Origin: Calditrichales bacterium | Lineage (GTDB): Bacteria; Calditrichota; Calditrichia; Calditrichales; J004 | Length of the DNA stretch: 64,000 bases | Direction of reading: 5' to 3' | NCBI GenBank assembly: GCA_965267575.1 | Contig: OZ254086.1 | Span: 1,184,001 to 1,248,000, forward strand | In this document: piece by piece, positions 38,495-52,757 of the stretch | Numbering within the stretch: position 1 is the stretch's first letter | Layout: the number at the start of each line of letters is the position of its first letter | Notes under the pieces: generated by a model | What the model was told of the DNA's origin: nothing | The model's input: the letters and a program-made list of their open reading frames with translations, nothing else | Databases searched by the model: none | Position numbers and translations under genes: made by a program

Positions 38495-38559
38495 ATCCCG
38501 TCTTATTCTATACGCCATGAAGAGCATGAAGGGCTTGTGTGGGATTGCCGCAGCTTGCT

Positions 38560-38617
38560 GTGCGTATGATTCTTTTATTTCATTAGACACATCCGGATGG
38601 AAGAATAGTTTAGGCAT
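38560..38617 (-). pseudogene. 5' remnant of RelE/ParE-type toxin
   Basis: MPKLFFHPDVSNEIKESY directly after the antitoxin; similarity and AT-richness end after about 19 codons. Confidence 0.55.
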
Positions 38618-38622
38618 TTGCT

Positions 38623-38844
38623 TTAGCCTTTGATTCCTTGCTTTATTTTATCCCACGTTACAGGCTTAACATTTCCACTTACAAGGTCATCATATCTTTT
38701 CTCAGCTAATTTGGCCCATGCAGAATCGACTTCTTCATCAATCACTGTGTCTAAAGATGAAATGATTATATGGGCCATTAAGGCTCTCTCTTTAGGATTT
38801 AGCTGTTTGACGTTTTCTAAAATTTGCTTAAAATCTTTTGACAT
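38623..38844 (-). CDS. Addiction module antitoxin component (TIGR02574-like)
   Basis: L...ERA..A..IISSLD...VDSAWAKLAEKR...SG.VKPVTW pattern. Confidence 0.8.
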   Translation of the reverse strand: MSKDFKQILENVKQLNPKERALMAHIIISSLDTVIDEEVDSAWAKLAEKRYDDLVSGNVKPVTWDKIKQGIKG

Positions 38845-38940
38845 ATATTCTCCATGAATACTTTATCTAAAAATAAGTCTGGCGAGCGAGTTGCCAAAAT
38901 TAATAGACAAACTTCGAATTATATCTTTTGAATGGACAAA

Positions 38941-40206
38941 CTATTTGAGATATAAAATCTTTTGAACATCTCTGAAAAAACCTGCTGAAAACCGGGAAAA
39001 ATAAATCCCGCTTGGTAATGGTTTTCCATCAACCGTTCCATCCCATAACAAAGTATGCTCACCGGCATTTTTTGGTTCATTGATAAGCGTGGTGACGTGT
39101 TTACTGTTTATCGAATAAATATCGAGAGATACATGTTGATTTACCGGTAAAGAAAAGGAGATTTTTGTAGAACTGTTAAAAGGATTGGGATAGTTTTGCT
39201 GTAAGCGATATCCGGTTGATTCTTTCTCTCCAGCATCAATCGAATTAATAATTTTACCCGATTCTATCAATACCGATGATTCTCCTGCCAATGATAATTT
39301 AACAACCCGAAACTCTTCAACGCCTCTTCCGCTGCCGTGACCGGTTTCAAATACGAAAATGGCGCCGTCATTATAGGCAATACCAAGCGGGAACCATTCC
39401 CCGCCGGAATAATAGAAATCGCTGTGTTTACCTTCCGGGGTTACTTTCAAAACCCGGGCATTTGAATAATAAGCAACATAAAAATTGCCATTTTCGTCGA
39501 TATCCAGATCATACATTGTATTGTAATTATTTCCACCCCAGGGATTGTCCGGGGGATTATTCTCCAGTAAACCGCTGGCAATCGTAGTCACCTGGCCATC
39601 GCTTGTAATCTTTCGGATAGCACCATCATCGCTTACATAAATGTTGCCATCACTAAGCAGGGTCATTGCATCGATTTTTGTAAACCGTGCTTCCAGCCGG
39701 TATCCGTCTTCGGTGCCTCTCAAGCCGCCGATATAGGGATAATATTTACCGCTGGGTTCTCTTTTATAAATATAAACGTAAACATCATCTCCTTTGGTAT
39801 AGATGTGTTGATAATACAAATTTCCATCTTTATCCAGTGCAAATTTGCTACCCAACAGATCACTGTTATTTGTTGGTTCAATGACGTAGCTTTCTTCACC
39901 GTTTGGGGCAACTTTAATTAGACTTACCCAGCCATTGCCCAGCTGAGTTTCTTCGTTTTCCAGATAAAGATTATCATGTTCATCCACAAATAACTGATGC
40001 ACCCACTTATCCGAATATAGTTTTAGCAATGTGTTATTGGGTGAATATTTCCAGATGGCCCTGTTACCGATATTGGTAAAATAAAAATTGCCTTTTGAGT
40101 CGAATTCAGTGCCCCAGCCTTCATGTGCTTTTACAGATGTAAATACAGTTGTCAGCAACATAAACAGATATAATATTCTTTTAGGCATGACACTCCTTAA
40201 ATTCAT
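38941..40206 (-). CDS. Secreted NHL-repeat/beta-propeller protein with C-terminal sorting domain
   Basis: DSKGNFYF, DKDGNLY, DGNIYVSD, IRKITSDGQVTT repeats; QNYPNPFNSST...LPSGIYF tail. Confidence 0.8.
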   Translation of the reverse strand: MNLRSVMPKRILYLFMLLTTVFTSVKAHEGWGTEFDSKGNFYFTNIGNRAIWKYSPNNTLLKLYSDKWVHQLFVDEHDNLYLENEETQLGNGWVSLIKVAPNGEESYVIEPTNNSDLLGSKFALDKDGNLYYQHIYTKGDDVYVYIYKREPSGKYYPYIGGLRGTEDGYRLEARFTKIDAMTLLSDGNIYVSDDGAIRKITSDGQVTTIASGLLENNPPDNPWGGNNYNTMYDLDIDENGNFYVAYYSNARVLKVTPEGKHSDFYYSGGEWFPLGIAYNDGAIFVFETGHGSGRGVEEFRVVKLSLAGESSVLIESGKIINSIDAGEKESTGYRLQQNYPNPFNSSTKISFSLPVNQHVSLDIYSINSKHVTTLINEPKNAGEHTLLWDGTVDGKPLPSGIYFSRFSAGFFRDVQKILYLK

Positions 40207-40370
40207 TTTAGCTTTATTTTCTTACGGGTTTAAAGTGCCGTACTACGGGTAAAATAAAAATAAGTTATCTGGCAGGACAGGGGGGACAATTTTGGAAAAC
40301 GGCTGGCCAACGGCATGTTCTTTTGCAGGCTGCAGGCGGGTAATTTTGTGCAAACACGCAGATGGTACTT

Positions 40371-40467
40371 TTGTAACGATGAGCATAACGGGCACGAACG
40401 CTGAACAAACTTCCAGTTGCAAAATCATGCCCCGCGTGAAGTGTCCGCGTTAATGCTGTTGTTATGT
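40371..40467 (-). other. attC site, terminal in left array
   Basis: Minus: ACATAAC-AACAG-CATTAAC...CGTTATG-CTCATC-GTTACAA (R''-L''...L'-R'). Confidence 0.85.
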
Positions 40468-40487
40468 TGCCATTATTTTATATAATA

Positions 40488-40680
40488 TTACTCAATTATA
40501 TCATTCCAATCAGAAGTAATTTTTAGTTTATTATTATTATTTTCAACTTTGAAACGTATGGTATCTGCACCAACTGGGTATTTAACAATTAAATCTGATC
40601 TTCCGACATTTAATGGTATAATTTCTCTAGTTGTTAATTTTATTATTGAAGAATCAAATCCTGAAAAACCGCATGCAAAA
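40488..40680 (-). pseudogene. 5'-truncated cassette gene
   Basis: AT-rich ORF end upstream of attC; its 5' part and the GTT start expected from R'' are missing. Confidence 0.6.
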
Positions 40681-40684
40681 TTTT

Positions 40685-40739
40685 CAAAGTGGAAATTCAC
40701 CGTCGCGCGGTTAATTCCCAGTTAATGCTGGTGTTATAC
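40685..40739 (-). other. Truncated attC (left half only)
   Basis: Minus: GTATAAC-ACCAG-CATTAAC-TGGGAATTAACCGCGCGACGGTGAATTTCC, homologous to attC at 51797-51894; L'/R' absent. Confidence 0.7.
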
Positions 40740-40743
40740 AGGT

Positions 40744-41280
40744 TTAATTTTTAGACAACGGTACTGCTACTATTTTCTTTCCCTTTCTTTTAAAGCCATT
40801 TAATTCTCGTAACTTTTCAAAAGTTGATCGATCATATTCTGGATTTAATGCATATTCTAGTTTTTGTATTATTTCAAACATTATTGTTATCCCATCAACA
40901 GCTATTACTTGTTCTATAAATTTTTTACTAACAAATTTTGAAGTATAAAGTTTTAATGCTTTAAGAAAATAAAACTTAACATGTCTTCTGGCTTTATCAA
41001 TTTCCTGAGCTTTTTCATCACCATTTGCAAGGTTTTCAATCCATTTTTCATTAAAATCATTTGGACTTTCATCTTTCCAATTTTTTAAGATTCTTAAACT
41101 ATTTACCATTTTATAGTCACTGTATTCTTCTAAAAATTGTAAATATAAATTGGCTTCCGTTGTTGATTTGATAGCTTTTGCTGATAACCATGCTGCGATT
41201 GCGGAGAAAGACGCTGCGATTGCTGTAATTGCGGTTAGTATCAAAATGCCTAATTGTTGGATTTCTGTATTACTTTCCAT
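40744..41280 (-). CDS. Cassette gene: N-terminal TM, helical protein (DUF4760-like)
   Basis: AT-rich ORF bounded by GTTATACAGG and CCTGTATAAC; family assignment tentative. Confidence 0.7.
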   Translation of the reverse strand: MESNTEIQQLGILILTAITAIAASFSAIAAWLSAKAIKSTTEANLYLQFLEEYSDYKMVNSLRILKNWKDESPNDFNEKWIENLANGDEKAQEIDKARRHVKFYFLKALKLYTSKFVSKKFIEQVIAVDGITIMFEIIQKLEYALNPEYDRSTFEKLRELNGFKRKGKKIVAVPLSKN

Positions 41281-41307
41281 TTGTGGGCTTTCAATTTTAT
41301 AAAACCT

Positions 41308-41405
41308 GTATAACGTTTTGGCATAAGAGGCGCGAACGCTTGATACGCTTAACTTTGCAAAATCATGCCCCGCGTGAAGCGTCCTGCTTAATGCCTTTGT
41401 TAGCA
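41308..41405 (-). other. attC site
   Basis: Minus: TGCTAAC-AAAGG-CATTAAG...CTTATGC-CAAAAC-GTTATAC. Confidence 0.85.
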
Positions 41406-41421
41406 GCTATTTAAGTAGCAG

Positions 41422-42183
41422 CTATTTAAGATTATAATATTTATTAATTTCTTGTATTAATCCCACATCAGTATGTACGCCTGGCATTACTTTGGGGTTT
41501 TCATCAGAATTCACCAAAATATACCCAACAGATCTCTCATATTCGCTTGTAAAAATCGGAACTGATTCATGTTCTGGAAGCCACACACTTATAATTTCTG
41601 CAGAAGTATTCACAACTTTTATTTTTTCTTCATCTAAGTATGGTTTTATTTTCTCTGAATAATACATAAAGTCAGAAATCATTTCATTAAAGCCGGATTC
41701 TTCATTTTGGGATTTCGTATCTATCTCTTCTTGAGAAGGTTGATACAAAATTACACAAGGCTCAGAGATAAATTGAACTTTATCATTTTGGTGGATGATT
41801 TTTATATCATCAATTTGAGCATGTATTTTAATATACTTTGTTTGGCTACCTTCGATATAGCTTATATAAATGGAAGTTGACGTTCTGATTAGTTTGGGAG
41901 CATACATTGGTGAGAATCTAAATAATGATTGATTTGGATATTCACCATACTCTGAAACAGCTACAAAGATATTATTGGTAATTTCTCCATTGGAAAAGCC
42001 TGCGCTTCCAGGTTCATTTGAAGTACTACAAATCCTTATTATTAACGAATCATTCCTAATTTCACCAAGAATTTCTATTTCATTAAAAAGTTTTTTTAAA
42101 CTCTCATCACTAATTTTTGAAACTGAAACCTGAGAATAAGAATAAACAATAAATAAACTGAGAATAAAGAATATTTTTTTCAT
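41422..42183 (-). CDS. Cassette gene: secreted hypothetical protein
   Basis: Signal peptide MKKIFFILSLF; bounded by GTTATCAGC and GCTGCTAAC. Confidence 0.75.
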   Translation of the reverse strand: MKKIFFILSLFIVYSYSQVSVSKISDESLKKLFNEIEILGEIRNDSLIIRICSTSNEPGSAGFSNGEITNNIFVAVSEYGEYPNQSLFRFSPMYAPKLIRTSTSIYISYIEGSQTKYIKIHAQIDDIKIIHQNDKVQFISEPCVILYQPSQEEIDTKSQNEESGFNEMISDFMYYSEKIKPYLDEEKIKVVNTSAEIISVWLPEHESVPIFTSEYERSVGYILVNSDENPKVMPGVHTDVGLIQEINKYYNLK

Positions 42184-42192
42184 AATGTTTTA

Positions 42193-42235
42193 GCTGATAA
42201 CAAGTATTAGACGTACTAAAATCCATGTTATAACA
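42193..42235 (-). other. attI-like site of left array
   Basis: ...TTTTAGTACGTCTAATACTT-GTTATCAGC; no attC hairpin upstream of this GTT. Confidence 0.55.
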
Positions 42236-42477
42236 TTCCTAATTAGTATTTTTTATATGTGGAAAAAATTCCATATAAAACACCTATAGCGTGGTATAGG
42301 TGGAAAATTTTCCATATAAAAACACGGTTTTAGACACCCTATTTTATTTTGGGATAATATAACCTCAAAGAAGCAGCAAAACAGCTTTTTTTCCACCGTT
42401 TAATACTCTTCTCCCTAAGAGTCAAGATGTTGCGTCTCTACACAAATATCGTCTCCAAGCCTGGCAGGGTGGAGAAA

Positions 42478-42703
42478 CGGGAGTGTATGTAAGGCTGCTA
42501 CAACTTTCATTTCCTGGATTCCTGTTTTCACGGGAATGACATGCCGGAAAGGGACGGGCATTTTTTGTTACTGTGAAATAATAAGAAATGGGAAAGATCC
42601 CGGTGTGGCTCAGCCGCCAACCGGGATGACGCTCCATTTCATGAACAAGATTTACCTGAACACGCACTCTAACACCTTAACACCCAAACACTTTAGCACA
42701 CTC
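42478..42703. repeat. Composite repeat, inverted copy of 50163-50423
   Basis: TTCATTTCCTGGATTCCTGTTTTCACGGGAATGACATGCCGG block plus CAAGATTTACCTGAACACG/AACACC block. Confidence 0.8.
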
Positions 42704-42706
42704 TTT

Positions 42707-43984
42707 CTACACACCCATTGCTTCCACAAGCCACAGGCTCAGGCCAGGCCAGTAGGTGATGATCAGCAGGGCGATCAGCAGAATAACCAGGAAGGGCAGC
42801 GTGGCGCGGTAGAGTTTCAGTACCGGCTGGTCAAAGCGGAAAGAGGCGATAAACAGGTTCATGCCCACGGGCGGCGTGGAGTAGCCGATGCCCAGGTTGG
42901 CCAGGAAGATGATGCCCAGGTGCACCGGGTCGATGCCGTAGTTGGCGGCGATGGGAATGATCAGCGGGGCCACCACCATGATTGCCGAGAAAATATCCAT
43001 CATCGCGCCGACAACCAGCAGGAACAGGTTCAGCACAATCAGGAAAGCGATTTTGGAGGTGATCAGCGTTTTCATGGCGTCGAGGATCTGCATCGGGATC
43101 TGCGCGTCCACCAGGTAATTGGCCAGCCCCAGCGCGGCGCCCAGTATCACCAAAATGCCCCCTACCATGATCATGCTGTCGTTGACCACGCGACGCAGGT
43201 CTTTTTTGATAGAAATATCGCGATAGATGAACACTTCCACGATCAGCACCCAGAAGGCGGTTATAGCCGCGGCTTCGGTGGCGGTAAACCAGCCCAGGTA
43301 AATCCCGGCCAGGATGACAAAGGGCAAAGGGATTTCAAAGGCGGCGTCACGTGTGGAGCTCCACAGCTCCGCCGCGTTGAAAGGCTTGCGTTTAACCGCG
43401 CTGCCACGCACCACCCACATGGCGTAAAGCGCCAATAGCAGCACCATCAGCGTGCCCGGCAGAATACCGGCCATAAAAAGCTTGTCGATGCTGGTTTCCG
43501 CCACCAGGCCGTACAAAATGATCGGCAGGCTGGGCGGGAAAAGCAGACCAAGATTGCCGGAAGCGGTCAGCATGCCCAGGCTGAATTTCTCGGAGTAGTT
43601 CTCCTCCATCAGGGCAGGCAAAAGCAGACCACCCAATGCCACGATCGTAACACCGGAGGCCCCGGTGAAGGCGGTAAACACGGCGCATGAAACCAGCGCC
43701 ACGATGGCCAGGCTGGCCGGCATCCAGCCGAACAGCGCCCGTGAAAAATTGACCAGCCGTTGCGGCGTGCGGCTTTCCGCCAGCAGGTAGCCCGCAAAGG
43801 TAAACAGCGGGATGGCCAGCAAAACCGGCTGACTCGCCAAACGGTACAATTCAATGATCAGCGCGCTGGAATCGATCTCAGCGGCGTGAAAGGCCAGCAG
43901 GGCAATCGCCGAAATGATGACGAAAAGGGGTGTGCCAAACAGGGTCAGAACCAGCAGCAGCAATCCAATCAGGAGGACAGTCAT
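42707..43984 (-). CDS. dctM: TRAP transporter large permease
   Basis: LLAIPLFTFAG, GLLFPPSLPIILYG, TPPVGMNLF. Confidence 0.92.
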   Translation of the reverse strand: MTVLLIGLLLLVLTLFGTPLFVIISAIALLAFHAAEIDSSALIIELYRLASQPVLLAIPLFTFAGYLLAESRTPQRLVNFSRALFGWMPASLAIVALVSCAVFTAFTGASGVTIVALGGLLLPALMEENYSEKFSLGMLTASGNLGLLFPPSLPIILYGLVAETSIDKLFMAGILPGTLMVLLLALYAMWVVRGSAVKRKPFNAAELWSSTRDAAFEIPLPFVILAGIYLGWFTATEAAAITAFWVLIVEVFIYRDISIKKDLRRVVNDSMIMVGGILVILGAALGLANYLVDAQIPMQILDAMKTLITSKIAFLIVLNLFLLVVGAMMDIFSAIMVVAPLIIPIAANYGIDPVHLGIIFLANLGIGYSTPPVGMNLFIASFRFDQPVLKLYRATLPFLVILLIALLIITYWPGLSLWLVEAMGV

Positions 43985-44478
43985 GATGCTTCCTCCCGCG
44001 GCTTAAGCGCCACTGCATTGTAAAGTGCCAGCAAGAGAAAGCGTACCCCCATCAGCGCGAATCCTATCGGGATGATCACCTGGAAATACCACGAGGGGAT
44101 ATCGTCGAACAGCGTGCCGCCATACATGCGTTCGTCCATTACAAATGTATATGACGCGTCTGCCAAAAAATAACAGACCACCACGGAAGCAATCTGCGTA
44201 ACAATTTTTGCCACGACCTGCGCGCGGCCTTTAAGCAGCCTGCCAAACACGTCGATGTTGATGTGCTTTTCATCGCGGGTGGCCAGCGAGGCGCCGACAA
44301 AACCAACCCACAGTACCAGGTGCCGCAGAAAAGCGTCGCCCCATAAAAAGCTTTGATCGAACAGGTTGCGCAGCAGCACCTGGGCAAAAGCCAGCAGCAC
44401 CATCACAAGCACTACCAGCACTAAAAACCACGATTCGACGCGCGCGAAGGCGCCGTTTATTTTTTCCAGTATGTTCAT
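43981..44478 (-). CDS. dctQ: TRAP transporter small permease
   Basis: 4 TMs, QVLLRN, GASLATRDEKHINID. Confidence 0.88.
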   Translation of the reverse strand: MNILEKINGAFARVESWFLVLVVLVMVLLAFAQVLLRNLFDQSFLWGDAFLRHLVLWVGFVGASLATRDEKHINIDVFGRLLKGRAQVVAKIVTQIASVVVCYFLADASYTFVMDERMYGGTLFDDIPSWYFQVIIPIGFALMGVRFLLLALYNAVALKPREEAS

Positions 44479-44577
44479 AAGTCGCCGTTTTTTTGGCCAT
44501 CAACATAGCGGATTTAAAAATATGCTTCAAGCGTTTTCGCCGTTTCATCATTGCCCGGCGATGCGTATTTTGGCGCA

Positions 44578-45887
44578 TGATGCGATTTCTCCTGGCACAC
44601 ACGGCACGTTACTTCCGCTCCTACCGTTTTAGCGGTCTGCTGGAGCTCTTTTTCCTGCTGCTGATCGTCTGGGCTTTTGGCGCCACGCGGCTGGCTTCTT
44701 TCACCGAGCGTTGGCTGGCCGAAGGCACCTCCGCGGGTCTGCTTTTTCTCAGCGCGCACATCTTCTGGCTGGCCGCGCAATGGACGCTTGTTTTCATCGT
44801 GGCCTTTTTGCTGCCGCGTCTGCCACAGGTAAAAGCCCTGCAGGGATTGCCTCTCAGCAACCGCCGTCTGCTCGGTTTACTGGCTGTTTTTTGCGCGCGC
44901 TACATGCTGGCCTTTGCCGCCCTATGGCTGATCGTTGTCTGGGCGCTGGCGGAAAGCGAGGCCTGGGTTGCGGCTTTGGGCGGGCTGCTGATGATGCCGG
45001 CGGGCCTGCTGTTCTCCATTGTTTTTATTCTTTTTGGGCGATTGCTTTTTGGGCAACGGCAACATTTCCTGTTTTTTACCCCGGCCCTGCTGCTGGCGGC
45101 GCACATACCCTTTACGCTTTTTTACTATTCCGGTTCAACGTTTGCCGCGGCCGATGCTGTTGTCGCGCTGCTTCTCGCCGGGTGGATGCTTTTTATGTTG
45201 CCCCGTCTGCCACAGCGTCACGCGGAAGATCTTTTCCCGGCTCCGGCGAACAGGCGCTCCGGTTTTTCCAGGCTTGCGCTGCCGCGATTGTTTGGCCGGC
45301 GCGTCCGGGCTCTCTGGCAGAAGGAGGTTTTATCGTTGTGGCGCAACCCGCGCTACCGGCGCCTAAAGCTGCTGCACCTGCTGTTGTTGTTAGCCGCCAA
45401 CAGCTGGGCCTTCACCCTACCCGCGGAGACACAGGTTTTTGCTCTCACGCTGATTGCCGCGACCTGGCTGTGGCTGCATTACAGTCACGGCTTTAACGAA
45501 AAATACGCCCACGCCGACGATGATATATTTTTGCTGACGCTGCCCTTGCGCCTGCGTCACCTGCTGGCCGCCAAATACCTGGCCGAGCTGCCGGCCTTGC
45601 TGCTGCTGTTTGCCGTCCAGGGCGCTTTTATGGTGCTGGCCTCGGGGAGCACCGTGGCGCTGCAGGCGCTGATCGTGTTATTCATTTTTGCCCATTTCGT
45701 ATTGCTGATCATGCTCAATTTCCGCATCCTCTTTCACAACGATCCGCGCAGCGCCGGCTACCTGTACCATTTTGTGGTGCTGTTTATCGGGCTGATGAGT
45801 TACAATTACCGGCTGGTGGGACCGCTCGTGGCACTGGGACTATTGATTTACTACTTTGACAAAAACAGGCGTTACCTGAACCACTGA
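44578..45887 (+). CDS. Putative ABC transporter permease (start uncertain, 44493-44581)
   Basis: Multi-TM, ALWQKE..LWRNP and LLTLP....LLAAKY motifs; coupled to ATPase gene. Confidence 0.7.
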
Positions 45888-46510
45888 TGCACACACTTAA
45901 AACAGATAACCTGCAGCTTTATTACGAAGATATTCCCGCGCTTAAAGGCGTCACCTTGGAATTGTCCTCCGGGCAAATCTACGGTTTGCAGGGCCCCAAC
46001 GGCGCCGGCAAAAGTACTCTGCTGAAAATCGCTGCCGGCATCATCACCGCCTACCGCGGTTCCATTTCTCTGGATGGATACGAAGTACGCGGGGAACGTT
46101 TTTGGATCAAGAAAAACAGCTGCTACTGCGCGGAGCAGGCCAGTCTGATGCCCTACCTGAGCGGTCGCGAATACCTCACCATGATCGCCGATATTTACGA
46201 CGCGGACAAAAATGTAATCAACACATACTTAGAATTGTGCAACCTGGAGCATGAGGCCGATACGCTGGTGGAAGACTACAGCCATGGCATGCGTCAAAAA
46301 CTGGCCCTGGCCGGCGCTTTCCTGCCGCAGCCGCCGTTCCTTTTCCTGGATGAAGCGCTGAACGGGCTGGATCAGGTCACAACCGAAAAAGTACTCAGTT
46401 ATCTCGCGGGCTTAGAACAGACTTTGGTCGTTTTTGCGTCACACCAGGCAGAGCTTCTGCAGCGCACTTGTACAACCGTTCTGCGTATTGAAGACGGAAA
46501 AATTGTCTGA
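45887..46510 (+). CDS. ABC transporter ATP-binding protein
   Basis: GPNGAGKST, YSHGMRQK, FLDEALNGLD. Confidence 0.9.
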   Translation: MHTLKTDNLQLYYEDIPALKGVTLELSSGQIYGLQGPNGAGKSTLLKIAAGIITAYRGSISLDGYEVRGERFWIKKNSCYCAEQASLMPYLSGREYLTMIADIYDADKNVINTYLELCNLEHEADTLVEDYSHGMRQKLALAGAFLPQPPFLFLDEALNGLDQVTTEKVLSYLAGLEQTLVVFASHQAELLQRTCTTVLRIEDGKIV

Positions 46511-46547
46511 GAACGCCCTATCGTCAAAGGAAATAATACTTTAGCTA

Positions 46548-46594
46548 TTGCATCTACAGGTAAACGGATGTATACTTGGTGTACTATTGTATAT
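46548..46594 (+). promoter_or_regulatory. lexA promoter with candidate SOS box
   Basis: TTGCAT-N17-TATACT followed by GTGTAC-TATT-GTATAT (46579-46594). Confidence 0.7.
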
Positions 46595-46611
46595 TAAACC
46601 GGGAGTACACC

Positions 46612-47232
46612 ATGAGCAAGGGTCTCACCCGCCGTCAGCAGGAAATAATGGAGATCATCACCGATCACATCAAACGTAAGGGATACGCGCCCACCTACCA
46701 GGAGTTGGCTGACCGGCTCAACATCAAATCCAAATACGCCATTTTAAAGCACATCGATAGTCTTGTTTCCAAGGGCTATCTGGAGAAGGACTCTTCGGCG
46801 CGGGCGTTGCGCGTGGTGCATCCGGATTTTATGCCGGCCAATAATAACGAATACGAGCTGCCGCTGATCGGTCGCGTGGCGGCCGGTTATCCCATCCTGG
46901 CCCAGGAAAACGTGGAACGCTATGTCTCCATCCCGCGGGCGATGGTTAAAGCCGAGGGCCGCTACTTCGCCCTGAAGGTGCGTGGCGATTCGATGATCAA
47001 CGCCGGTATTTTTGAAGATGACATCGTTGTGGTGCTGGCTGCGCAGAGTGCTTACAACCGCGACATCGTTGTGGCCCTGGTGGATGACGAAGTGACGGTA
47101 AAGCGCCTCATCCGCGATGGTGGCCAAACCTACCTGAAAGCCGAAAACCCGGATTACGAGGACATCTACCCGCAAGGCCAATGGTCCATCCAGGGCAAGG
47201 TGGTTGGATTGATCCGTGAAATGGCAAATTAG
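46612..47232 (+). CDS. lexA: SOS repressor LexA
   Basis: LTRRQQEI...GYAPT wHTH, GRVAAG cleavage site, GDSM Ser, TVKR Lys. Confidence 0.95.
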   Translation: MSKGLTRRQQEIMEIITDHIKRKGYAPTYQELADRLNIKSKYAILKHIDSLVSKGYLEKDSSARALRVVHPDFMPANNNEYELPLIGRVAAGYPILAQENVERYVSIPRAMVKAEGRYFALKVRGDSMINAGIFEDDIVVVLAAQSAYNRDIVVALVDDEVTVKRLIRDGGQTYLKAENPDYEDIYPQGQWSIQGKVVGLIREMAN

Positions 47233-47363
47233 AAGAGTGGCGGGTTGAATTATTGAATAGATGAATTGATGGATTAGAGAATCTTCAAAAATTGAAGCAC
47301 GTTCTTTTCAAAAATTCAAATATTCAACCATTCACTAATTCAGTATTTCATACATTCACTTCT

Positions 47364-47753
47364 ATGGAACTCTACAACATTCCTCTTTTTGGCGAGGTGC
47401 ACATTGAGCACGACGGACCCTGGCAGGGCGATTACGACCTGGGCGAGCTCATCCGCAATGTGCGTGCCCGCGAAGCCGAAACCATCACCGTGCGTGCCGC
47501 CGATGACGGCCTGATCAGCGACGGTATTTACCCCAACGATTTTCTCACCGTGGACATGAAGCGCAAACCACACGATGGCGATATTGCAGTGGTGCGCCTG
47601 GGTCACCGTGTGTATGCACGTAAGATTTTTTTTGAGAAGAAATTTGTCCGCCTGGAAACCAGCGGCGACAACCCCGCCCCCCTGATCATAGAACCCAAGA
47701 CCCCGGGATTTGAATTAGTCGGCCGTGTGGTGACGGTGATACGGGAATTGTAG
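47364..47753 (+). CDS. S24/UmuD-like protein lacking catalytic residues
   Basis: Aligns to LexA C-terminal domain (IPLFGEV, GIYPND, DGDIAVV, LVGRVV) but AG->IE, GDSM->DDGL, VKR->ARK; no HTH. Confidence 0.72.
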   Translation: MELYNIPLFGEVHIEHDGPWQGDYDLGELIRNVRAREAETITVRAADDGLISDGIYPNDFLTVDMKRKPHDGDIAVVRLGHRVYARKIFFEKKFVRLETSGDNPAPLIIEPKTPGFELVGRVVTVIREL

Positions 47754-47758
47754 GAGAA

Positions 47759-48157
47759 CTATTTTAATAGTTTAAAGTCTTTTGATTTGGCCGCCGTTTT
47801 ATCCAGGGTAACCGTATAATCACAGCCCTCACGTTTGTTGTAAACGGCGATCAAATAGTCAGAAAAATCTGCCTGGCCCTGCGCAAATAACAGAGCCGCT
47901 TGTCGAGCATCCGTTGCCTTCTCAACTTTTAACTCTTTCGAATCCAAAAGGGTATTTAGTACTTCAACAATAAGCTCTTTAGGATATTTATACGCGCGTT
48001 TTAAAACCCAAACTAATTCACATAAGACGACAGTATTAATAAAGCCCGGACTTTCGATAGTGCAATTATTCTCAATAAATTCGCTTGCTAAAGCCGCTTG
48101 ACCTGGATCATCTTGTACGACATAGCGGACGATTACATTGCTGTCAAGGCCCTTCAT
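47759..48157 (-). CDS. vapC: PIN-domain toxin (VapC family)
   Basis: GLDSNVIVRY, LCELVWVL, ADFSDYLI, TLDK. Confidence 0.88.
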   Translation of the reverse strand: MKGLDSNVIVRYVVQDDPGQAALASEFIENNCTIESPGFINTVVLCELVWVLKRAYKYPKELIVEVLNTLLDSKELKVEKATDARQAALLFAQGQADFSDYLIAVYNKREGCDYTVTLDKTAAKSKDFKLLK

Positions 48158-48386
48158 TATTCTCTCCGCCTTCAATTGCAGCTTGCATTTCTTCTAAACT
48201 CACCACATAGTCCGGCTTTGGAAGTATCCCTTTTAATTTCTTAACAGAGGTCTTTACCGGCGCCAGATATATTCGACCAGAATCATCTAAAACGAAATCT
48301 ATTTTATCCCCAGTATTTAGATTCAGTTTTTTTCTGATCTTGCCCGGGAGTGTAATTTGACCTTTGCTCGTAAGCGTAGATGTCAT
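48144..48386 (-). CDS. AbrB/MazE/SpoVT family antitoxin
   Basis: STLTSKGQITLPGKIRKKLNL..GD; overlaps toxin start. Confidence 0.88.
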   Translation of the reverse strand: MTSTLTSKGQITLPGKIRKKLNLNTGDKIDFVLDDSGRIYLAPVKTSVKKLKGILPKPDYVVSLEEMQAAIEGGENNEGP

Positions 48387-48406
48387 TTCAAAAACCCTCA
48401 TCATTT

Positions 48407-48423
48407 CCTTACTAAAGGTAAGG
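48407..48423. promoter_or_regulatory. Candidate TA autoregulatory operator
   Basis: CCTTAC-TAAAG-GTAAGG palindrome upstream of antitoxin. Confidence 0.55.
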
Positions 48424-48624
48424 GAATTTCCTTGAAATGTAAAATTTGTTTAGGACGAAAAAATCTATTTTCGTTGAGAAGCATTTTTGCGCCATTTAGC
48501 GCCGGCTGTCATCTCAAATCCCCGGTTAGGGGTGAGAGATCAAGGAGCTACCGATGCAGCCCGAACTCCTCGCGTCCCAAAAATCCGTCCATTCCCCATT
48601 CCCAATTTTTTAATTCCCGCAACG

Positions 48625-48672
48625 TTGCCCCGCGCCCGGCTTCTCCTTATATTTTGGTGTACATAAGTACAC
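48625..48672 (+). promoter_or_regulatory. Promoter with candidate SOS box for polymerase operon
   Basis: TTGCCC-N17-TATATT followed by perfect-armed GTGTAC-ATAA-GTACAC (48657-48672). Confidence 0.72.
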
Positions 48673-48679
48673 TACAAGG

Positions 48680-48940
48680 ATGAGCATGAAATTTGAAGAC
48701 ATCTTCGAGCCGATCGAAGTGATCACCCATTTCAAGGATGGCAAACTGCGGCCCCTGCGCTTTAAGTGGAACGGCCGGGTTTACAAAGTGCGCCAGTGGA
48801 ACGGCAACTGGATCAACCACCAGGGCTATACCAAGCAGTACCACTTTTCCGTGCGCGCCGACAGCTCCGACTATATCGAGCTGCTGTTTGACGACTCCAC
48901 CCTGCAATGGCAGATCGCCCGTGTCTGCCTGGAAGGATAG
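48680..48940 (+). CDS. Small DUF6504/ImuB-C-like protein, probable Y-family polymerase partner
   Basis: EPIEV...PLRFKWNGRVYKV...W...HFSV...ELLFD...WQI pattern; 2 bp upstream of the polymerase. Confidence 0.65.
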   Translation: MSMKFEDIFEPIEVITHFKDGKLRPLRFKWNGRVYKVRQWNGNWINHQGYTKQYHFSVRADSSDYIELLFDDSTLQWQIARVCLEG

Positions 48941-48942
48941 CC

Positions 48943-50160
48943 ATGCCACAACGTGTCATCATGCACATAGACGCCGATGCTTTTTTTGCCTCGGTGGAAC
49001 AGGGTTTTAACCCGCAGCTGCGTAACCGTCCGGTGGTTGTGGGCGGTATTGCCGAGCAGCGCGGCGTGGTGCATACGGCCAGCTACGAAGCGCGCGAACA
49101 GGGCATCCGCACCGGCATGCCACTGGTAAAGGCCAAAACCATCTGTCCCGATGCGGTGTTCCTGAAAGGCGATTACGCGCACTACCGCGCCGTGGGTGAA
49201 GTGCTGCAGGAGGTCTACCTGCGCTATACGCCGCGCGTGGAATTTACTTCGCTAGATGATGCCTACCTAGATCTCACCGGCACCGGGCACATCCATGAGT
49301 CGCCCACTTGGGTGGCGCGTTGCATCAGCGATGAAGTAGAGCGTCGCGTGGGCGTCAGCATCTCCATCGGTATCGCCGGCAGCAAGATGATCGCCCGCAT
49401 TGCCTCGGGCATGTACAAGCCGCGCGGCATCGCCCACATAACCCCGGACCATGAGATGGATTTTTTGGGCAAACTGCCCGTGGACCAGCTGCCGGGTATC
49501 GGGCGCATGGCGAAGGAAAAACTGACCGATCTGCACATCTTCAAGGTGGCTGAACTGGCCCGCCTGCCGCGCATCATCGTGGAGCAGCTGTTTGGCAAAA
49601 ACGGTATCACCATCTGGAAAATGGCCAACGGCATCGATGAGCGTGAAGTGAAAACGCGCGTCATCCCCCGTCAGATAAGCCGCGAAACCAGCTTCCCCGA
49701 AGACACCTCGGACATGGGCATCATCAAGGGCAGCATGCAGTACCTGGCCGAGCGCGTGGCCCTGACCCTGCGCCGCGATCAGCTCACCTGCCGCACCGTC
49801 GGCATCCGCCTGGCCTATTCCGATTTCAGCCGCATTGGCCGCAGCCGCAGCATGGAGATGGCCTCCGATGATCCCGCCGACATCTACGCCCAGGCCGAGC
49901 AGCTGTTCGACGCGTTGACGCTGCGCCGCGTGCGCATCCGTCATATCGGTGTTTCCGTCACGCAGATCCGGCCGCGCAATGAGCAGGCCTTCCTGTTCAG
50001 CGAGCGCTCACGCAAGGAGGCCCTCAACAGCGCCATTGATGAGCTGCGTGAACGCTTTGGCTTTATGGCCGTAATGCCCGCCGACACGCTAAAGCTGAAA
50101 AGCCGCTACCGCAACGACGCCCACGGCTACATCCTGCACAACCCGGCGCTCACACGGTGA
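48943..50160 (+). CDS. dinB: Y-family DNA polymerase (DinB-like) with C-terminal RecA-NT-like motif
   Basis: HIDADAFFASVE, SYEAR..GI..GM, SLDDAYLD, KPRG, LPGIG, QAFLF clamp-like motif, LNSAIDELRERFG. Confidence 0.9.
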   Translation: MPQRVIMHIDADAFFASVEQGFNPQLRNRPVVVGGIAEQRGVVHTASYEAREQGIRTGMPLVKAKTICPDAVFLKGDYAHYRAVGEVLQEVYLRYTPRVEFTSLDDAYLDLTGTGHIHESPTWVARCISDEVERRVGVSISIGIAGSKMIARIASGMYKPRGIAHITPDHEMDFLGKLPVDQLPGIGRMAKEKLTDLHIFKVAELARLPRIIVEQLFGKNGITIWKMANGIDEREVKTRVIPRQISRETSFPEDTSDMGIIKGSMQYLAERVALTLRRDQLTCRTVGIRLAYSDFSRIGRSRSMEMASDDPADIYAQAEQLFDALTLRRVRIRHIGVSVTQIRPRNEQAFLFSERSRKEALNSAIDELRERFGFMAVMPADTLKLKSRYRNDAHGYILHNPALTR

Positions 50161-50162
50161 CA

Positions 50163-50423
50163 ATGTGTTATGGTGTTTGGGTGTTAAAGTGCGTTTTCAG
50201 GTGTTCACGTGTTCAGGTAAATCTTGATCGTGATCTTACTCATGATCAAGATCCGTGGAAAACCATCCCATCTTTTTCGTTCTCTTTCTCTTTATCATTA
50301 TCTGCGTTTTCTTCACCATGAAGGACATGAAGGGCATGAAGAAACGCCAGTCCTTATCCGGCATGTCATTCCTGTGAAAACGGGAATCCAGGAAATGAAG
50401 ATTGTGGCTCTTACACACTCCCG
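50163..50423. repeat. Composite repeat, inverted copy of 42478-42703
   Basis: GTGTT 8-mer run plus CGTGTTCAGGTAAATCTTG, and CCGGCATGTCATTCCTGTGAAAACGGGAATCCAGGAAATGAA. Confidence 0.8.
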
Positions 50424-50607
50424 ACCAGACAAAGAATCATGCCGGTTTTGTTGGCCTGCGAAAGGTGTTTTTTTTGTAAAAAATTTACTTAGTGTAAAGA
50501 TATGCGGGTCCACATATCACGCCTGTGGGAATGATATATTGCCAAAAAATCCAGATAACACCACCTGTGAGGAATATTTGAAAAAACAGTTTTTTTTGTG
50601 CTGACGG

Positions 50608-50650
50608 ATTATGTATTTTTCTATAAAACTACATAATAATAATGTTAGGC
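50608..50650 (+). other. attI-like site of right array
   Basis: ATTATGTA-N14-TACATAAT-AATAAT-GTTAGGC; no attC hairpin upstream; GTTAGGCA matches cassette-end TGCCTAAC. Confidence 0.55.
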
Positions 50651-50658
50651 ACTTGAAC

Positions 50659-51093
50659 ATGGAAAAAGAAACCTTACAAATAGCTAAGAAAATATTTAAA
50701 CGCATAGCTACAGATTATCCCAGTTTAGAAACTACAATCCAAGAGGGAAGTCAAGTGGAACTAGAAATGGTTATTCCAAAGCAAAAAGGCTTGAAGTTTC
50801 CGATTCATTTAAATCTTCAAAACAATGATGAACTACATTTGCAAGCAGGAAATTGTTTTTGGCTAGAATGGTTCCCTTGTACAAATCCTGAGCGTGTTGA
50901 ACAATTTGTTGACGCAGTTAATGGATTAATATCAGGAAAATACAGAATCTTGGAACACTATAGAGGAAAGCGAGCAATTAAAGCAGAGTTTCAAATACCT
51001 GATGGGGAAACTTGGAATACAATTGGGACATGGAGTACTTTGAGTTTCCCATTTCCTATGAGAAAAGAACAAAAGGTTGTCTCAAATGCCTAA
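50659..51093 (+). CDS. Cassette gene: hypothetical protein
   Basis: AT-rich ORF whose TAA stop lies within R'' GCCTAAC. Confidence 0.75.
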   Translation: MEKETLQIAKKIFKRIATDYPSLETTIQEGSQVELEMVIPKQKGLKFPIHLNLQNNDELHLQAGNCFWLEWFPCTNPERVEQFVDAVNGLISGKYRILEHYRGKRAIKAEFQIPDGETWNTIGTWSTLSFPFPMRKEQKVVSNA

Positions 51094-51209
51094 CAAGCAA
51101 ATTAACCTGACGTGATCGGGACTTTCCTTCGGCCTTCCATTGTGAAACCCAATCTATCTGCTAAATTACACTCTTAATCACCACGCAGGTTATCTGCTGG
51201 CCGCTATAT
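51088..51209 (+). other. attC site with mutated R' (GCT)
   Basis: GCCTAAC-AAGCA-AATTAACCTGACGTG...CACGCAGGTTATCT-GCTGGCC-GCTATAT. Confidence 0.75.
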
Positions 51210-51229
51210 AACCAAAGAGTTCTAATTAA

Positions 51230-51793
51230 ATGAAAAAAACAATTATAATTTTCATCCTTACCTTTACTTCTATTCTAGATTGTTTTGCTCAATCTGATAT
51301 AAATAAAATTGCTAATGTTACTTTTGAAAAAGATGGAATAAAATTTTCTTTTTATATTAATAAAACTATCGTTTCTTCAAAGGATACGCTTGAAACAGAA
51401 ATTGATATTTTAAATGAATCTGATAATTCAATTTTCGTTGTACCAACATTCCATTTTACTTATGTGGTGGATAGTATATCCAAAATTCCGAATAGTATCT
51501 ATTTGGATTTTGGTGGTTCAATTGAAGATTATATAGTAGCTGTTCCATTTATTGAAATAGAAAAAAATAAAAATTTTAGTGTTAAAAAGAATTTTCATTG
51601 TAGCAATTTTTCTTATGATGGTTTTGCTAAAGAAATATATTTCCAATTATGGTTTGGATATCTTAGACCAAGACCTTTTGAAAAATTTGAAGAACCTAAA
51701 ATATCAGATGGATATCTTTATTTCGATCAATCGAATATTAAATTTTTTGAAAAAGGTTTATTAAGTTTGGCAAAGGTAATACATCACCAATAG
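51230..51793 (+). CDS. Cassette gene: secreted hypothetical protein
   Basis: Signal peptide MKKTIIIFIL; very AT-rich; between attC sites. Confidence 0.75.
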   Translation: MKKTIIIFILTFTSILDCFAQSDINKIANVTFEKDGIKFSFYINKTIVSSKDTLETEIDILNESDNSIFVVPTFHFTYVVDSISKIPNSIYLDFGGSIEDYIVAVPFIEIEKNKNFSVKKNFHCSNFSYDGFAKEIYFQLWFGYLRPRPFEKFEEPKISDGYLYFDQSNIKFFEKGLLSLAKVIHHQ

Positions 51794-51796
51794 GTC

Positions 51797-51894
51797 ATAT
51801 AAACAAAATATTCAACTGAGAATTAACCGCCGGACGGTGAATTCCCAAACGATAAATCATACAGCGGTTAATCCCGTTAATATTCACGTTATAT
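51797..51894 (+). other. attC site
   Basis: ATATAAAC-AAAATATTCAAC...TTAACCGC...GCGGTTAA...GTTAATAT-TCAC-GTTATAT. Confidence 0.8.
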
Positions 51895-51931
51895 GCTTAG
51901 AGCCTGTTAATAATAAAGTTTTGATGTAAAG

Positions 51932-52537
51932 ATGAAGCTATCTACACTTATAATACTAAGCGCGACATTATCGCTACTAGGTATATTAACCATTGCATAC
52001 TCAGATCTGCTTTGGAGCGAACTCTGGCTTGGAGTTCTGTTTTTTGAAGCACCACTATTTCTTGGATTCTTAACAATCTTTATTTCATCGATAGTTTTGT
52101 TAATTAAACACAAAAGAATTAAAAATCTTTTACCATTATTTATTAATGTATCCACCATATTAATTATAGTTTTTTGTCCTTTGGGAGACTGGAAAAATTC
52201 TTTTACATTTCAATGGCATTTTGATGAAATGAATAAGATTGTGCAAATGGTTAACTCTGGTGAATTAAGTCCCAATGTTAAACATAATCAAAGACTAATC
52301 CGTCTTCCATCACAATATGAAAACTTATCTGTAGGTGGCGGTGAAATTATCGTCGATAAGATCAACGATTTGAATGTTGTTTTCTTTTACACGTTTAGAG
52401 GAACGCCGGATGGAAGAGCCGGTTTTATTCATCTTCCTAAGAAAACAAGTCTTGCAGATTTGAAAAGAAAAATTTATTATGAGTTATATTTCCAAAAGAA
52501 GCTGACAGATAATTGGTTTTATATAAGTGCAGATTAA
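51932..52537 (+). CDS. Cassette gene: membrane protein (about 3 TMs plus soluble domain)
   Basis: Bounded by GTTATATGC and GCATATAAC. Confidence 0.75.
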   Translation: MKLSTLIILSATLSLLGILTIAYSDLLWSELWLGVLFFEAPLFLGFLTIFISSIVLLIKHKRIKNLLPLFINVSTILIIVFCPLGDWKNSFTFQWHFDEMNKIVQMVNSGELSPNVKHNQRLIRLPSQYENLSVGGGEIIVDKINDLNVVFFYTFRGTPDGRAGFIHLPKKTSLADLKRKIYYELYFQKKLTDNWFYISAD

Positions 52538-52580
52538 AAGAAATATGATCATAGTTAATTTTTACATTAATAGTAGTAGC

Positions 52581-52678
52581 ATATAACAAAGGCATTAACT
52601 CGGAAACTTCACGTGGACGGTGATTTGGCAAATGGAAGCTTTATCAGCGCTCGTGCCGGCTATGCTCGAACGTTACAA
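52581..52678 (+). other. attC site, terminal in right array
   Basis: ATATAAC-AAAGG-CATTAAC...GCTATGC-TCGAAC-GTTACAA; same family as 40371-40467 and 41308-41405. Confidence 0.85.
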
Positions 52679-52757
52679 ACCTAATTTTCCCTCACCCCTG
52701 AACAAAAAGACATCAAGACTCAAAAACCTCAGGACCACAAGACCGCCAGCCCCCGGC

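Follow-up and report, generated by a model that had tools for sequence, protein, structure and literature searches.

Cassette arrays and their attC sites

The subject of this analysis is a pair of gene cassette arrays in a 64,000-nucleotide (nt) stretch of the genome of a Calditrichales bacterium (assembly GCA_965267575.1, contig OZ254086.1, positions 1,184,001 to 1,248,000), referred to here as the window and numbered from its first base. The genome is a complete single contig of 4,732,520 bases (98% complete), called C1, and loci elsewhere in it are given with C1 positions. The initial annotation, made from the sequence alone, had described two outward-facing, integrase-less arrays of three cassettes each, built on the same plan, and had proposed that they represent dispersed attI platforms loaded in trans by an integrase encoded elsewhere. 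The arrays form two islands with a G+C content of 0.28 to 0.35, compared with approximately 0.55 in the flanks, and face outward from a core segment that contains dctMQ, lexA, a umuD-like gene and a Y-family polymerase gene and that is kept in relatives. The left array is read on the minus strand from position 42403 and the right array on the plus strand from position 50460. As had been claimed, each begins a few hundred base pairs past a host gene: the first GTT lies approximately 500 bp from the DctM gene (42707-43984, minus strand) on the left and from the Y-family polymerase gene (48907-50160, plus strand) on the right. Both islands share a layout in which a head sequence and a GTT triplet are followed by three short open reading frames (ORFs), each with an imperfect palindrome (..AAC to GTT..) after it.

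All features of the left array lie on the minus strand. The first cassette carries an ORF of 253 amino acids (aa) that belongs to no family (41422..42183), followed by attC L1 (41305..41409), which scored 92.2 bits with the covariance model described below. The second ORF (178 aa, no family above threshold, 40744..41280) precedes a decayed attC, L2 (40605..40743; 10.3 bits, E value of 0.84), in which the R'' and L'' boxes are kept but the 3' half is divergent; across 34 nt of the 5' half, it shares 88% identity with attC R2. A doubtful 70-aa ORF (40488-40700) is followed by the terminal attC, L3 (40368..40471; 97.3 bits).

In the right array, which lies entirely on the plus strand, the program-listed start of the first ORF (50611) is upstream of the GTT, and the true start is likely the ATG at 50659 (ORF at 50659..51093). 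The attC behind it, site R1 (51084..51212; 9.7 bits, E value of 1.1), is defective, having kept the R'' box TGCCTAAC and the L stem and lost the GTTA of the R' box. The second and third ORFs (187 aa, 51230..51793, and 201 aa, 51932..52537) are followed by attC R2 (51794..51896; 83 bits) and by the terminal attC R3 (52577..52681; 97.7 bits), respectively. Each array contains two intact attCs and one decayed attC, and the two terminal sites, 80% identical to each other, both end with GTTACAAA. The complementarity of cassette ends reported earlier was confirmed as well; it is exact for GTTATACAGG/CCTGTATAAC, GTTAGGCA/TGCCTAAC and GTTATATGC/GCATATAAC, and GTTATCAGC/GCTGCTAAC are complementary at 8 of 9 positions.

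To assess the sites as attCs, we used a covariance model, model R1, built from a hand-drawn R''/R' and L''/L' structure on seven sites of this genome, four of them from the window. RNAalifold run on raw MAFFT alignments had yielded no consensus structure, with two rows misaligned, and the structure was then drawn by hand. In this structure, 94.9% of cells pair, compared with 28 to 42% in controls with slid partners; compensatory changes occur in seven pairs, and none of 500 shuffles reached the observed values. The folds show bulged L'' bases, and the attC hallmarks hold in four of the six window sites and fail in two. Model R1 scored four of the six at 83 to 98 bits, its seed including those four, and found five non-seed sites in the genome at E values of at most 4.4e-4. 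Three sites, B2, D2 and one labelled C1 like the contig, had been left out of the seed; the last was regained at 43 bits, and B2 and D2 were not regained in the genome.

Because the model was built on the same sites, tests outside this genome were needed. We therefore applied it to five loci of relatives picked solely for holding intI (genomes of relatives are designated by G numbers, with their own contig numbers). Model R1 gave 48 matches beside intI at an E value of at most 1, and all had the orientation predicted for an array that diverges from intI: in G003:C1, all 19 lay on the minus strand, and in G003:C15 and G049, all 3 and all 26, respectively, lay on the plus strand. No match was obtained in the 2.3-kb stub of G004. 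Furthermore, attC R2 is 92% identical to one attC in the integron array of G003. Since model R1 also detects, in the expected orientation, sites beside the intI genes of relatives, four of the six window sites are true attCs of the type of this lineage. The claim of three attC-bounded cassettes per array stands for these four sites and fails for L2 and the first right attC. With at least two attCs each and no intI nearby, the arrays are clusters of attC sites that have no integron integrase (CALINs); an intI with the IntI-specific domain adjoining an attI, which defines a complete integron, was not found.

None of the six cassette proteins had a homologue in the arrays of relatives that were compared or in the rest of this genome, and they matched no Pfam, NCBIfam or PADLOC family at meaningful scores. 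Rfam at gathering thresholds gave no match in the whole window. Low-G+C DNA runs on past the terminal left attC (38500-40367) and there encodes a 421-aa protein with a type IX secretion system (T9SS) sorting tail, a 73-aa Unstab_antitox gene product and the apparent truncated start of a toxin; no attC match was found in this stretch. Within the core segment, a PIN toxin and MazE/AbrB antitoxin pair (47759-48404, G+C content of 0.38) lies between the umuD-like and Y-family polymerase genes, which are contiguous without the pair in G003, G004 and G007.

Recurring heads of the arrays

The left head, P1, is an attI-type platform of approximately 210 bp (42195..42403, minus strand) that runs from TTAAACGG (42403) to the crossover between CTAATACTTG and TT, the G of the crossover GTT being at 42201. 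A BLAST search of the genome with approximately 500 bp preceding the first GTT revealed further copies at C1:4680355-4680144 (92% identity) and 335326-335115 (88%), and the last 49 bp of P1 recur with 100% identity at C1:2470160-2470208, giving a total of four copies on the chromosome. On its left, P1 has a sharp boundary that is the same in three copies (TTAAACGG), the flanks of which are unrelated; in two of the three, the preceding base is G, and the resulting GTTAAAC fits the IntI box GTTRRRY. P1 contains a pair of 27-nt direct repeats that are 89% identical at a spacing of 41 (TATATGGAAWWTTTTCCAC..., 42254..42321, minus strand) and an inverted repeat, ATAACATGGATT/AATACTTGTTAT, whose right arm carries the crossover GTT. 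Two promoter-like sites, both consensus matches only, are oriented toward the cassettes (TTGAGG-16-TAAAAT, 42341..42368, minus strand) and divergently (TAGACA-16-GATAAT, 42331-42358, plus strand); six such consensus matches were found, compared with a shuffle mean of 1.3.

The right head, P2, comprises approximately 165 to 190 bp (50460..50646, plus strand) and ends at the crossover between AATAATAATG and TT, with the GTT at 50644-50646. The same search revealed copies at C1:4473212-4473403 (81% identity) and 4462980-4463118 (82%), each followed by cassettes, so that P2 is present three times on the chromosome. Similarity among these copies ends just past GTTA. P2 holds a 13-nt inverted repeat, and no direct repeat was found in this right head. 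Its status as a putative attI rests on position and recurrence.

Several features are common to the two families. The aligned head copies agree up to GTT(A) and diverge after it. Each array opens at the GTT that closes its head, and both heads occupy the position of an attI, at the head of an array with the crossover between G and TT. The 13-nt core CTAATACWTGTTA occurs exactly seven times in 4.73 Mb (approximately 0.3 expected by our own estimate) and always at a cassette start. A box, TCCA[ACT][AC]TAT..CACGC, is shared by P1 and P2 and occurs six times in the genome, in heads in every case, although the pattern was chosen after seeing the sites. The DNA after all head copies is low in G+C. 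In 5 of 5 extra head copies that were followed as far as an attC (loci B, C, D and E, with part of D), the cassette behind the GTT is closed by an attC. At loci B, C and E as well as in both window arrays, the sequence just past the GTT is complementary to the R'' box of the next attC. An attG site would be an unrelated target with little conserved beyond GTT; here, 165 to 210 bp are conserved at four and three loci.

Farther from the cassettes, the spacers hold modules resembling repetitive extragenic palindromes (REPs) at 42478..42700 (minus strand) upstream of P1 and at 50164..50423 (plus strand) upstream of P2, each with approximately 10 to 27 copies genome-wide. The left and right spacers share two module stretches (70 bp at 76% and 89 bp at 83% identity) in the same order and longer than the 27 to 38 bp shared with other copies, and the modules were not found at the other arrays of this genome. 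They resemble REP and REPIN (REP doublet forming hairpins) repeats in that the pieces of the composite repeat are short hairpin-bearing modules in 10 to 27 copies; they stand outside the cassette system. The REP-like modules are dispersed filler and do not belong to the integron-like unit.

These observations divide the plan that the initial annotation had ascribed to both arrays. The shared composite repeat is real between left and right but consists of dispersed REP-like families; the direct-repeat pair is present in the left head and has no counterpart in the right one; and the common layout of head, GTT, cassettes and attC stands, whereas P1 and P2 themselves share one short box. The suggested comparison of approximately 500 bp upstream of each array showed that the proximal heads recur before other cassettes and that the distal repeats are absent from the other arrays. 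The conclusion that the arrays are not fragments of one broken array was borne out, in that the two heads are different sequences, each recurring before other cassettes.

Three further cassette islands with an attC match (C1 near 181461, 4671321 and 4460412) lack a P1 or P2 head; one of these headless islands encodes a protein with a T9SS tail and carries an attC whose GTT is mutated to GCT. The islands tend to pair, at distances of 8 kb for the left and right arrays, 10 kb for loci E and D, and 9 kb for locus A and the site at 4671321.

Integrases, relatives and a prophage

The last ~80 nt of P1 matched G035:C165:4354-4432 with 75% identity over 79 nt (E value of 5.5e-8). The matching stretch, on the strand opposite intI, separates the first GTT from an intact 337-aa intI; the alignable part corresponds to the last ~95 nt of P1, and similarity stops at the GTT. 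With the spacer that adjoins a broken intI on G035:C13, P1 shares 72% identity, and the core sequences next to intI in G003 and G004, which read AATAYTATGTTAT, are similar. Because it is homologous to the intI-attI spacer of G035, P1 is, as judged by its sequence, a genuine attI region. The canonical attI position, a spacer beside a divergent intI, was found for P1 only, via G035:C165 and C13.

This spacer occurs four times in G035. Two copies adjoin intI, the intact gene in one case and the broken gene in the other (93% identity); the remaining two, on C436 (81%) and C481 (82%), have unrelated genes in place of intI. Both of the latter begin with TTGCCAT, comprising the intI start codon and four further bases, and are thus cut 7 nt into intI; they also share substitutions against the intI-linked copies. 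The common starting point and substitutions indicate that the two satellites descend from a single intI-less progenitor. The C436 satellite is followed by a 342-aa ORF and an attC at 38.8 bits. The earlier proposal of dispersed attI platforms gains from these results: the heads recur, P1 is homologous to the attI of G035, and in G035 copies without intI coexist with an intact intI. In G003, an attI copy of 99% identity is located at a contig end (C19). Weaker attI-like matches in G003 (C5 twice, C20 and C13) were not counted as satellites, as they comprised only a ~35-nt promoter-like motif with no attC match.

Several further observations concern the integrons of relatives. The intI genes of G003:C1, G003:C15 and G011 each contain one in-frame TGA and may be pseudogenes or recoded. 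In three integrons (G035:C165 and two in G003), an element sits precisely at the attI crossover, and a second copy lies inside a G003 array; we take these elements to be IS91-family-like (zinc-binding transposase, preceded in G035 by a tyrosine recombinase). The palindrome TGTAC-N4-GTACA is present in the window at the lexA start (46580-46593) and upstream of the polymerase gene (48658-48671), a count of two that was equalled in 13 of 100 shuffles, and in G003 and G004 the intI start has a similar palindrome next to it. From these positions, the palindrome is a candidate SOS box of the lineage, and its integrases may be under SOS control.

IntI scored over the TIGR02249 cut-off in 30 of the 61 genomes searched and was found at an E value of at most 1e-40 in six of the nine genomes of the same family. 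No integron integrase was found in the window, for which the initial annotation had noted the lack of any tyrosine recombinase, and, against its assumption of an integrase elsewhere, none was detected in the complete 4.73-Mb genome, in which none of ten TIGR02249 matches passed the cut-off. The best of them, a 298-aa Xer-type ORF, leaves out the IntI-specific middle part of the model. A family-level query of the genome revealed no IntI remnant either, only Xer-like ORFs. A 118-aa recombinase fragment at C1:4705636 was considered as a remnant and rejected, judged by eye; we take it to be the C-terminus of a generic phage-type integrase. Because the complete genome lacks IntI, there is no ongoing trans loading by a resident IntI.

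P1-type sequences also occur in a prophage (C1 ~3,822,900-3,851,500) that encodes an O-like replication initiator, DnaB, two tyrosine recombinases, terminase, portal, head and tape measure proteins. The P1 core is present in it three times, each time on the strand opposite to that of the phage genes, and two of the three copies are a 36-nt fusion of the first direct repeat (DR1) and the core; a 23-nt stretch of DR1 is found twice in the prophage. All four attC matches of the prophage (22.9 to 38 bits) likewise lie opposite the phage-gene strand, and one cassette has perfectly complementary 11-nt ends, GTTAGGTGGCC/GGCCACCTAAC. Shortened attI copies, termed mini-attI, are located at C1:3828294 and 3834382, and one mini-attI lies ~50 nt from the start of the gene for a 243-aa recombinase. 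This protein scored 80.1 bits against the TIGR02249 cut-off of 265, with two aligned stretches that skip the middle of the model, and is not an IntI by this measure; it lacks the IntI-specific segment, has a short N-terminus and a generic Phage_integrase domain only, and its relatives are at most 39% identical among the best 80 of 265 confirmed loci.

The sequencing data listed for this genome were four contig sets from one sample and study, none of them RNA, and contigs of three runs (X1, X3 and X4) were examined. The contigs break at P1, where the depth is ~2.1 to 2.3 times that of the flanks, and no contig spans most of the right array. Synteny gave no empty sites, the relatives being of other genera and conserving the genes but not the spacers. 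The system looks inactive in this genome because two of six attCs are defective, the head copies are 81 to 92% alike and no alternative joints were seen.

Origin of the arrays and relation to known integrons

The evidence makes it likely that both arrays are attI-headed CALINs, that is, satellite platforms that were loaded in trans in the past and have since been orphaned and begun to decay. An intI-less attI platform would have arisen once per family in a lineage in which integron integrases are common. It would then have reached further sites by copying or movement, probably through IntI action on the GTT-type boxes of both ends; the left GTTAAAC box and the right-end attI could permit excision of the platform as a small circle. 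Each copy would have been loaded independently through attI x attC recombination catalyzed in trans. The genome would since have lost IntI, or would have met IntI only transiently, leaving the arrays static and decaying.

More tentatively, the attI platform itself could be a small mobile unit, extending from GTTAAAC to the crossover between CTAATACTTG and TT with divergent promoters, that IntI seeds across a chromosome and into a prophage. The result would be a distributed integron loaded in trans by one integrase, whether resident, transient or phage-borne, and the present genome would show its state after integrase loss. We regard this as a possibility well short of an expectation. In a bolder form, the small Xer-like recombinase beside the prophage mini-attI may have taken over.

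A number of results weigh against the arrays being satellite platforms, or limit how far this can be carried. L2 and the first right attC were the best sub-threshold matches of model R1, at the right place and on the right strand, and were not significant (10.3 and 9.7 bits). The model gave no match beside the intI of G011, the one with the in-frame TGA, and detected no attC in 24 short loci of relatives, six of them intI loci with at most 1.5 kb of flank. No attC match was found within the 8.7 kb following the P1 copy of locus A, and one left junction reads ATT rather than GTT. The left boundary of P2 is not sharp, no intI-linked homologue of P2 was detected among 86 genomes of the phylum, and its sole outside match is 37 nt in G050 that are not beside intI. 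Overall, P1 and P2 are not detectably homologous (in nine comparisons, equally high scores were reached by 5 to 142 of 300 shuffles). G035 is a 73%-complete metagenome-assembled genome, and its contigs may not all stem from one cell; G049, complete and with intI and a large array, has a single spacer and no extra attI copy. Head copies that are 81 to 92% identical imply that dispersal is old. The proposed search for empty or differently filled sites was also negative, in that neither a recombination event nor an empty site or any turnover of cassettes was observed, and the contigs of the three runs from the one sample contained no alternative joints.

Among the other explanations, the one that survives best, though it is unlikely, holds that each array was left behind by its own complete integron after in-place deletion of intI, with neither platform mobility nor loading in trans. 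The origin classically proposed for CALINs is integrase loss (PMC4889954), IntI is frequent in relatives (30 of 61 genomes), and broken intI genes are present in G035:C13 and G016. Three P1 copies, however, have an identical left boundary within unrelated flanks, and the two G035 satellites share a cut 7 nt into intI together with common substitutions; independent deletions are an unlikely origin because they would not end at the same base. The missing IntI remnant in the genome argues in the same direction.

A system still active through a recombinase other than IntI appears improbable. The candidate would be the 243-aa Xer-like enzyme of the prophage, whose gene diverges from a P1-type mini-attI ~50 nt away that is followed by a cassette and an attC in an integron-like layout; the three P1 cores, two with the 23-nt DR1 stretch, and the four attC matches of the prophage also speak for it. 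But the enzyme is not an IntI (80 bits versus 265), two of the six window attCs are decayed and no alternative joints were found.

We give slightly less credence still to cassette insertion by a transient IntI at nonspecific secondary sites (attG), which would make the upstream sequences mere local DNA. The attG route and small CALINs or single attCs lacking integron integrases (SALINs) are documented in 10.1101/2022.09.11.507474, the present arrays are small, and three other islands lack a P1 or P2 head; the conservation of 165 to 210 bp before the GTT at four and three loci and the homology of P1 to an intI-adjacent attI are at odds with this route. Finally, a single integron split by inversion or rearrangement of the 8-kb segment between the arrays would account for their outward orientation, for the REP-like modules inside them being inverted and for terminal attCs that are 80% identical and both end with GTTACAAA, but it is scarcely credible given heads of different families, conserved core genes in between and other head copies megabases away.

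Understood as satellite platforms with attI heads, the arrays can be compared with known systems. They resemble CALINs as characterized in PMC4889954 in having at least two attCs with no intI nearby, small arrays, homologue-less cassettes and a genome without IntI, and they differ in their recognizable attI head, which is multi-copy and belongs to two families. According to the same paper, IntegronFinder seeks attI only by exact match to classes 1 to 3, so such heads escape that route. A published CALIN headed by a copy of the lineage attI is likewise attI-headed, with attI and attC associated with a prophage; that case has an intact IntI in the same element, whereas here there is no IntI, seven heads are chromosomal and the prophage copies are a shortened attI. 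Insertion at attG and SALINs, as presented by Loot et al. (10.1101/2022.09.11.507474), share cassettes outside a classical integron and a GTT junction, but attG sites are unrelated genomic sequences and not a conserved 165- to 210-bp platform.

The Delta-attI-type cassettes of mobile integrons offer a parallel in that attI serves as a movable recombination partner inside arrays; according to PMC12901181, those are resistance cassettes of class 1 and 2 integrons with IntI present, while here whole platforms head chromosomal mini-arrays. With sedentary chromosomal integrons, the arrays share attCs that form a fairly homogeneous, lineage-typical family (R2 is 92% identical to a G003 site), yet there is no intI and no single long array. 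Mobilization of CALIN cassettes in trans is accepted as possible in published work (PMC12444791 and PMC9668308). We found no description of multi-copy attI heads in the integron literature searched, the supplements of which may list further cases.

CALINs are commoner than complete integrons, and their origin is debated among integrase loss, rearrangement and attG insertion. The present genome offers a fourth, testable route, in which attI platforms are dispersed without an integrase and each is loaded separately. The case further provides natural attI sequences from a phylum that has been little studied, together with a prophage that carries a shortened attI. If the route is general, surveys based on intI and attC alone would miss the landing pads, the gene-capture capacity of a lineage would be spread across many loci, and a single incoming integrase could reactivate all platforms at once.

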